A stretch of DNA of 56,444 bases, the filler included, from Tortispora ganteri (lineage: Eukaryota), in the NCBI GenBank assembly GCA_003707115.1. It is 5 parts of 5 records of this genome, joined end to end, with 100 filler letters (N's around TTAATTAATTAA, not from the genome) between each part and the next. Parts side by side here need not be neighbours in the genome. Positions count along the whole stretch, not along the records: positions 30,697 to 56,444 come from PPNB01000043.1; 4 more parts are not named here. The stretch is one strand, 5' to 3'. Shown here piece after piece: positions 48,486 to 49,035 of this stretch. Both the position numbers and the translations under genes were made by a program. How positions within the stretch are numbered: position 1 is the stretch's first letter; every line of letters starts with the position of its first letter. The notes beneath the pieces are model-generated. The model searched no databases. It had not been told where the DNA came from and was given only the letters and a program-made list of their open reading frames with translations.

Positions 48486-49035
48486 TCATACCTTTGAGGC
48501 CACAGTTTGCTCTTGCTCTAATTTGTGAGCATTCCTTTCGTGAAGTTCCTGCTTGCAATTCTTCAGGCCTGTACAGTTATGATGTTCGAGAAGTCTATGC
48601 TTTGAGCAGAAATGACCATCGCAAAACTGGCAGTCCCCAACTAATCGCAAGGGTGCTGAAGTGCATTTGGACATAGAACAGCGGGATTTGGCACCGCCTC
48701 TCAGCCGAAGGACAAGATGCAAAGTGGATTCTTTCTGAATATTATAATCGGACAGCGTTCTGCCATCTTCTAATTGCTTACCGGCAAAAATGAGTCTCTG
48801 CTGGTCTGGCGGAATACCTTCTTTTTCCTGGATCTTTGATTTGACGTTATCAATTGTGTCTGACGACTCTACCTCTAGGGTGATAGCTATTACATGAGTT
48901 AGTGAGTGGTCTAGTGAAAAATAAAATGAGGACTACCTGCAAAATGGATCTCTGCTAGTTTGTACAGGATTATTTCTGTTATAATTTTACTGTATACTTA
49001 CTCTTCCCTGTGAGTGTTTTGACGAATATTTGCAT
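48486..49035 (-). CDS. Ubiquitin-AN1 zinc finger fusion protein, 144 aa; exons 49035-49002 and 48886-48486
   Basis: 115-nt intron GTAAGT...CACTAAC...TAG. Spliced product is [76 protein letters not shown] followed by [10 protein letters not shown]...[20 protein letters not shown]... Confidence 0.93.

Follow-up and report, generated by a model that had tools for sequence, protein, structure and literature searches.

An intron-containing ubiquitin–AN1 zinc finger gene of Tortispora ganteri: a Tmc1 orthologue and probable ubiquitin precursor

To our knowledge, textbooks derive ubiquitin solely from polyubiquitin genes and from two ribosomal-protein fusions. The genome of Tortispora ganteri contains a gene of another composition, in which a ubiquitin is joined directly to an AN1 zinc finger, and this raises two questions: does such a gene supply ubiquitin, and is it a novelty of this yeast or an old gene that other lineages have altered? 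An initial annotation, made from the sequence alone, had suggested a possible non-ribosomal ubiquitin precursor. Here, the gene is analysed within the 56 444 nt stretch of T. ganteri DNA in which it lies (hereafter the window; five parts of assembly GCA_003707115.1, joined end to end) and compared with its relatives in sequence databases and metagenomes.

A gene for one ubiquitin and one AN1 finger

The gene is divided into two exons, and its parts are listed below.

49035-48486, minus strand: the ubiquitin–AN1 gene, with its ATG at 49035, two exons and the stop TGA
49002..49035, minus strand: exon 1 (34 nt), comprising the ATG, ubiquitin codons 2–11 and base 1 of codon 12, an A at 49002
48887..49001, minus strand: phase 1 intron (115 nt) within codon 12, 5' GTAAGT and 3' TAG
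48903-48898, minus strand: branch motif ACTAAC in the intron, read from the sequence
48889-48887, minus strand: the TAG at the 3' end of the intron, read from the sequence
48886-48486, minus strand: the whole of exon 2, TGA included, from sequence and translation
48693..48886, minus strand: ubiquitin part of exon 2, from the last two bases of codon 12 to G76, ending in LRLRGG
48489..48692, minus strand: exon 2 tail of 68 aa, first residue Ala77, with a Tmc1-type AN1 finger and a C-terminal helix, ending in VASKV
48573..48680, minus strand: the AN1 zinc finger proper, C81 to C116, with eight zinc ligands (Pfam zf-AN1, 46.6 bits)
48492..48557, minus strand: predicted C-terminal helix, residues 122–143 (AlphaFold2, pLDDT 51–59)
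48486..48488, minus strand: stop codon TGA, from the sequence

Splicing of the gene by script gives 435 nt, that is, 144 codons and a stop, with no internal stop codon. The intron has a GC content of 0.32, against 0.43–0.46 for the exons. Upstream of M1, the reading frame runs into a stop without another ATG, and the ubiquitin thus forms the extreme N-terminus of the protein. If the gene is left unspliced, the earliest in-frame ATG of exon 2 is that of M84, within the finger; the 78-codon ORF mentioned in the initial annotation is consistent with a bacterial-style reading frame opening at the TTG of codon 67. The junction between the two domains reads GG-AKSRC, with a non-proline residue directly after G76. 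The coordinates, the 115 nt intron, this junction and the spacing of the zinc ligands had all been given correctly by the initial annotation, as confirmed by translation, splicing and alignment. A second ubiquitin was sought across the window and none was found; the gene carries a single ubiquitin.

The protein has a close counterpart in NCBI, the 144 aa 'hypothetical protein CANCADRAFT_21234' (P0002), which is the top match of the tail search described below and belongs to Tortispora caseinolytica NRRL Y-17796, of the budding-yeast family Trigonopsidaceae. Its N-terminus is the same as that of the window product, which implies the same splice, and the sole difference between the two proteins is T117R. 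At codon 117 (48570-48572), the window codes for Thr and P0002 has Arg, so the window and that record do not agree letter for letter. One way to dismiss the gene would be to see in it a pseudogene, a chimera of the assembly or a locus that stays unspliced and makes no such protein. We consider this extremely improbable: the frame of 144 codons is intact with all the zinc ligands and ubiquitin determinants, the structure recurs in the independent NCBI record, the position of the intron is conserved and homologous fusions exist in many taxa (see below).

Both domains are readily recognized in the exon 2 product, which matches the Pfam families ubiquitin (PF00240, E 5.2e-27, 93.9 bits for a cut-off of 25.4) and zf-AN1 (PF01428, E 3.8e-12, 46.6 bits for a cut-off of 27.9). 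The 76 aa moiety and the ubiquitin units of Morchella importuna agree at 75 of 76 positions, the only change being D32E, and translation shows that K6, K11, K27, K29, K33, K48, K63, the L8/I44/V70 patch and the LRLRGG end are all present. The initial annotation, which had described a true ubiquitin differing from that of yeast at D32E alone, with its lysines, I44 patch and C-terminus intact, was therefore accurate; we take the yeast protein to be the same as the fungal sequence used here as reference. The top matches of a PDB search are ubiquitins, and AlphaFold2, run on a 12-sequence family alignment (A1), models the ubiquitin fold with pLDDT 87–94.

The ligands of the finger are spaced C81-x4-C86-x10-C97-x2-C100-x4-C105-x2-H108-x5-H114-x-C116, and all eight are invariant in alignment A1. 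The same is true of residues N130, A131, K133, L134, Q138, T139, V140, A141, K143 and V144, which make up the motif of the C-terminal helix. Among solved structures, the nearest fingers are 1wfe (E 0.0007) and the Cuz1 finger 5ij4 (E 0.0097). The finger itself was not modelled with confidence by AlphaFold2 on A1 (pLDDT <50 for residues 74–123).

The gene is flanked by a tubulin-family gene (domains Tubulin and Tubulin_C; 46794-48188, plus strand), which is convergent and ends about 300 bases from its 3' end, and by a zinc alcohol dehydrogenase-family gene (ADH_N and ADH_zinc_N; 49866-51014, plus strand), which is divergent, with about 830 bases of shared intergenic DNA between the two. By eye, the first appears gamma-tubulin-like and the second, by look only, resembles class III alcohol dehydrogenase/formaldehyde dehydrogenase.

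The intergenic region (49036-49865) was scanned for HSE, YRE and TATA motifs. No HSE was found, and the yield was limited to a TATATA at -702 and a single STRE-like AGGGG at -188. We also searched the window for the S. cerevisiae Rpn4 site (PACE), which we take to be GGTGGCAAA. No exact copy is present in the window, and the match at the gene is as follows.

49035..49043, minus strand: PACE-like CGTGGCAAA, matching the S. cerevisiae Rpn4 site at 8 of 9 positions and overlapping the A of the ATG

Matches with one mismatch number 18 in the window against 11.4 expected, and 18 is reached in 3 of 100 shuffles. The PACE-like sequence was dropped as evidence for Rpn4 control, since it overlaps the ATG and the number of matches is non-significant; it is probably not meaningful. 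Thus, the scan of 49036-49865 and the PACE search revealed no clear stress promoter at the ubiquitin–AN1 gene.

The tail and its N-terminal partners in the Tmc1 family

The relatives of the tail were searched for with the 68 aa sequence alone. A first search returned 13 candidates, all passing E 0.001. Apart from P0002, these are 12 budding-yeast proteins of 127–204 aa with the same finger and C-terminal helix, one of which (from Martiniozyma) is named Tmc1. An exhaustive phmmer search against 1.84 billion cluster representatives gave 489 matches at E <= 0.001, 155 of them at E <= 1e-10. The window's own protein is not among the best 150 representatives listed, its 50% cluster presumably standing under a representative outside the listed matches, and single-unit ubiquitin–AN1 proteins may be under-counted for this reason.

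The representative of the cluster that contains TMC1_YEAST (P0032, 150 aa) matches the tail with E 1e-19 and 58% identity, and the named cluster member itself (P0179) shares 59% identity with it over 64 aa (E 4e-29). Because of these matches, the tail can be identified as the Tmc1 finger, which bears out the Tmc1-like character assigned to it by the initial annotation. The finger is located at the extreme C-terminus together with the conserved helix, and it is nearer to Tmc1 (E 1e-19) than to the finger of Cuz1 (E 0.0097). On sequence grounds, the tail of the window protein is orthologous to S. cerevisiae Tmc1.

The domain that precedes this finger varies widely among the yeasts, from ubiquitin-like domains (UBL) to sequences without recognizable similarity to ubiquitin.

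Lipomyces and Dipodascopsis: a 76-residue UBL with 37–43% identity to ubiquitin, the LRLRGG end kept in three of five
Geotrichum (P0008): a UBL about 44% identical to ubiquitin, without GG
Other yeasts (P0009-P0013): no BLAST-detectable similarity to ubiquitin; a UBL-like N-terminus in four of five by alignment
Saccharomyces cerevisiae Tmc1: an N-terminus without detectable UBL

Identity to ubiquitin is all-or-none in the 162 family proteins that were fetched. Over the aligned part, it is at least 96% in eight of them (P0002, P0062, P0072, P0074, P0105, P0125, P0138 and P0147), and the next best value is 61.7% (at least 40 aligned residues). Such a pattern is expected if the moiety either serves as ubiquitin or decays freely. 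Where it is still ubiquitin, the moiety is held as tightly as ubiquitin itself, by selection, concerted evolution or both. In the family as a whole, the supply of ubiquitin is not the conserved task of the N-terminal domain, because 146 of the 154 rows of the tail tree have a decayed UBL, no detectable UBL or a gene model that opens at the finger.

Models of the last type include P0030, P0038, P0043, P0047 and about 30 further representatives, which begin with Met at the finger (MPPKKIRC, MAPKKIRC, MPVKPRC). The relatives with true ubiquitin or with a GG-ending UBL read ...GG-MPxKK.C at the corresponding place. Upstream ubiquitin or UBL exons may have been missed in the Met-at-finger models, or the moiety may have been lost exactly at the old cleavage site.

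The tail tree comprises 154 tails and 70 alignment columns, with strong support on 9 of 150 inner branches. The eight rows with true ubiquitin need seven changes on this tree, of which the strongly supported branches force just two. As the tree is poorly resolved, any argument for ancestral retention of ubiquitin has to be drawn from the taxonomic spread of the fusions and not from the tree.

True ubiquitin–AN1 fusions and the age of the gene

Fusions of true ubiquitin with the same finger were found in the following organisms.

Rhizopus arrhizus: three ubiquitin units, two of them with an odd LRLRLLGG end
Planoprotostelium fungivorum (Amoebozoa): two units
Basidiobolus ranarum (Basidiobolomycota): truncated model
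Morchella conica and M. importuna (Pezizomycotina): two units
Saitoella complicata (Taphrinomycotina), named 'polyubiquitin 5': two units
A metagenome cluster of 61 members: three units

True Ub(n)–AN1 genes are therefore spread over each of the three ascomycete subphyla, several of the early lineages of fungi and one amoebozoan; within the set of proteins fetched, budding yeasts are represented by Tortispora alone. That similar fusions might occur in other fungi had been a guess of the initial annotation, and they do (in Morchella, Saitoella, Rhizopus and Basidiobolus). An unspliced fragment (P0059) also contains a perfect C-terminal third of ubiquitin followed by the same GG-AKSRC junction.

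Two of these proteins have unusual ubiquitin units. In Rhizopus arrhizus (P0074/P0178), two of the three units have two extra Leu residues at the end (LRLRLLGG) and the first unit is diverged (MYIFVKNLGDR...); the LRLRLLGG ends are either a real variant C-terminus or an error of the gene model. In the metagenome protein P0138 (233 aa), a second, diverged ubiquitin-like domain lies between one true ubiquitin and the AN1 finger; this protein may be an intermediate in which decay is confined to the unit adjoining the finger.

This architecture has been catalogued before. Martin-Villanueva et al. (2021; PMC8122580) name zf-AN1 and zf-RRN7 as the partners that occur most often in unusual ubiquitin architectures, and their supplementary table has 67 zf-AN1 rows, including Absidia and Lichtheimia (Mucorales) and Acanthamoeba. 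Tortispora has no entry in the table, and the rows read for Lipomyces starkeyi show no AN1 fusion. Sibbald et al. (2019; PMC6332867) report fusions of ubiquitin with a finger named only as a 'zinc ring finger' (145, 199 and 273 aa) from two algae. The 67 rows run against the premise of the initial annotation that any UBL of an AN1 protein is a diverged one.

The intron within codon 12 provides information on the history of the gene. We scanned metagenomes with patterns derived from tails of the budding-yeast type and obtained 38 related loci; all are UBL forms, with no true-ubiquitin locus among the 38. A phase 1 intron at the same place as that of the window gene was found in 10 of them with a strict pattern (intron of 47–55 nt, GT[AG]AG right after base 1 of codon 12, AG right before the remainder of the Thr codon), and by eye the locus L004 has the same intron with an AAG acceptor. 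The model P0105, which carries true ubiquitin and is unspliced, reads K11-S followed by non-ubiquitin sequence, as expected from read-through into the AGT of the same codon 12 intron. Provided that canonical fungal ubiquitin genes have no intron at this place, the shared intron suggests that the N-terminal moiety and the finger have formed one gene since an early ascomycete or before; from then on, the two seem to have travelled jointly.

Ten of 11 metagenome UBL–AN1 loci examined (L001, L002 and L004-L012) have an in-frame Ser-rich stretch upstream of MQIFVK/QIFVK. Most of these Ser-rich loci show an in-frame upstream ATG, and the UBL still ends in RGG. If the upstream ATG is used, the UBL of these loci would be internal and not that of a standard N-terminal precursor.

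A different origin can be imagined for the Tortispora gene, in which the UBL had already decayed in the budding-yeast ancestor and a canonical ubiquitin gene later overwrote it in Tortispora through gene conversion. In the Lipomycetaceae, the earliest branch of budding yeasts, as in later branches, the UBLs are decayed and share I44V and F45Y, which speaks for this scenario. On this branching order, one loss and one conversion cost the same number of steps as two independent decays. Ubiquitin loci, moreover, are described as evolving in concert (PMC8122580, PMC6332867). Against conversion stands the occurrence of true-ubiquitin forms in all three ascomycete subphyla, and three further observations argue mildly against a conversion of very recent date. 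Residue E32 occurs in only one of the 58 ubiquitin units of AN1 fusions examined, that of Tortispora, which makes such a recent copy less likely should D32 be the residue of the canonical loci; the GC3 values of the ubiquitin part (0.46) and of the tail (0.47) are nearly equal, without sign of a foreign tract; and the codon 12 intron has been retained. We regard conversion as possible but rather doubtful. It concerns the origin of the moiety and is compatible with either of the functions discussed below.

Since both the true ubiquitin–AN1 genes and the codon 12 intron are widely distributed, the fusion appears, from the sequences compared, to be old and not an invention of Tortispora. A further step would be to regard TMC1 as what is left of a fourth type of ubiquitin-precursor gene, Ub(n)–AN1, of ancient origin and older than the split between fungi and Amoebozoa; we give this proposal about an even chance. 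If it is true, lineages are in one of two states: the ubiquitin is still harvested (at least 96% identity), or it has become a cis-acting UBL or been lost (drift to 62% or less). Tortispora would then be a living budding-yeast example of the harvested state, with one ubiquitin per proteasome-stress finger, and would allow the connection between the supply of ubiquitin and the function of Tmc1 to be studied by experiment.

Proposed function and comparison with known systems

We propose that the gene is a TMC1 orthologue in what is probably its ancestral form, a spliced Ub(E32)–AN1 gene acting most likely as a deubiquitinase-cleaved ubiquitin precursor that co-produces a mini-Tmc1. The primary product would be one true ubiquitin (E32) joined through G76-A77 to the 68 aa AN1 zinc finger. 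General deubiquitinases cut any linear ubiquitin–X junction, with the exception of ubiquitin–Pro, and would be expected to cut after G76, as they do in Ub-eL40, Ub-eS31 and polyubiquitin. The cut would yield a conjugatable ubiquitin and a free mini-Tmc1 (68 aa, starting with Ala) in a ratio of 1:1. The gene would thus represent a fourth, non-ribosomal type of ubiquitin precursor, in which the supply of ubiquitin is coupled to a proteasome-stress factor; this role of the tail is taken over by analogy from S. cerevisiae Tmc1.

Comparison with the relatives favours cleavage. In the 29 true-ubiquitin family proteins, the last GG is followed by A, M, N, S or V and never by Pro. Some relatives carry two or three perfect units before the same type of finger, an arrangement that is useful only if cut. 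The precursor reading of the initial annotation thereby gains comparative backing, from the multi-unit relatives and from the lack of Pro, and loses its claim to novelty: the ubiquitin~zf-AN1 architecture is already catalogued (PMC8122580), and the protein with the same splice is annotated in NCBI as hypothetical.

Alternatively, the ubiquitin might be kept on, or removed slowly, and act in cis on the AN1 protein as a degron of the UFD type or as a proteasome-docking domain. S. cerevisiae Tmc1 is short-lived, and most relatives have an N-terminal UBL without GG (Geotrichum P0008; P0009, P0011-P0013), which suggests a cis role; association of S. cerevisiae Tmc1 with the 19S cap has also been described (PMC10616229). 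However, the UBLs of these relatives have diverged, and a domain working in cis in Tortispora would not need to remain 99% identical to ubiquitin. The intact RLRGG followed by Ala is, moreover, a standard substrate of general deubiquitinases, whose cutting is slowed by Pro alone, the very residue missing at this position in the true-ubiquitin proteins. For the Tortispora protein, a cis function is in our view unlikely, and release of the ubiquitin by cleavage is the reading retained below.

The literature search retrieved no functional study of ubiquitin–AN1 proteins and no link between Tmc1 and ubiquitin fusions, except for a remark in PMC8122580; its scope was literature other than subscription journals. 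The architecture of the gene is known, and the practical value of the present result is modest since the gene is already annotated and the architecture catalogued. What appears to be new in print is the proposed link, in which Tmc1 would be the tail of an old ubiquitin gene. A third fusion partner of ubiquitin, recurrent from amoebae to ascomycetes and hitherto noted just in domain tables, is now tied to a named yeast stress protein. Its origin as the tail of a ubiquitin gene would suggest a reason for the presence of Tmc1 in the ubiquitin–proteasome stress regulon. The natural series from true ubiquitin to UBL with GG, UBL without GG and no UBL offers a means of probing the use of the moiety for small zinc-finger tails, a question that applies equally to eL40 and eS31.

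The S. cerevisiae Tmc1 protein is described as a target of Rpn4 that cells require to tolerate arsenite and antimonite and that associates with the 19S cap (PMC10616229, PMC11799193, PMC13656322). As in the window protein, its AN1 finger is single and C-terminal, the first two ligands are spaced C-x4-C and the same helix comes after the finger. The two differ in what precedes the finger: the first 84 residues of the S. cerevisiae protein are Ser/Lys-rich and give no BLAST match to ubiquitin, whereas the window protein has a true ubiquitin there and its tail begins four residues before the first Cys. The catalogued Ub(n)~zf-AN1 fusions are closer in layout: in them, true ubiquitin is directly followed by a single AN1 finger of the same subtype at the C-terminus, with VASKV or a similar end, and the Morchella protein is 79% identical to the window product over its full length. 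Those seen have two or three ubiquitin units, whereas the window gene has a single unit with E32.

Among other AN1 proteins, Xenopus An1/ZFAND4 (ANUBL1) also combines an N-terminal ubiquitin-like domain with a C-terminal AN1 finger, but it is a much longer protein and its UBL is diverged. The founding AN1 gene was described under the title 'ubiquitin-like fusion protein' (cited in PMC5035049). Cuz1/ZFAND1 is likewise an AN1 protein of the ubiquitin–proteasome system with a domain of ubiquitin fold, and its finger (5ij4) matches that of the window weakly (E 0.0097); the domain order is reversed, with the AN1 finger N-terminal and a diverged UBL C-terminal. The window product, with this difference in order and without the LDFLP motif that defines the Cuz1/ZFAND1 subfamily (PMC5035049), does not belong to it.

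A further parallel is provided by the ribosomal-protein fusions Ub-eL40 and Ub-eS31 (UBI1-3, UBA52, RPS27A), in which G76 of one N-terminal ubiquitin is likewise joined to a tail that is small and basic and binds zinc. With this common layout, cleavage would give equimolar products in both cases. In the window gene, however, the tail is a proteasome-stress factor instead of a ribosomal protein, and the gene is not universal, having decayed in most lineages.
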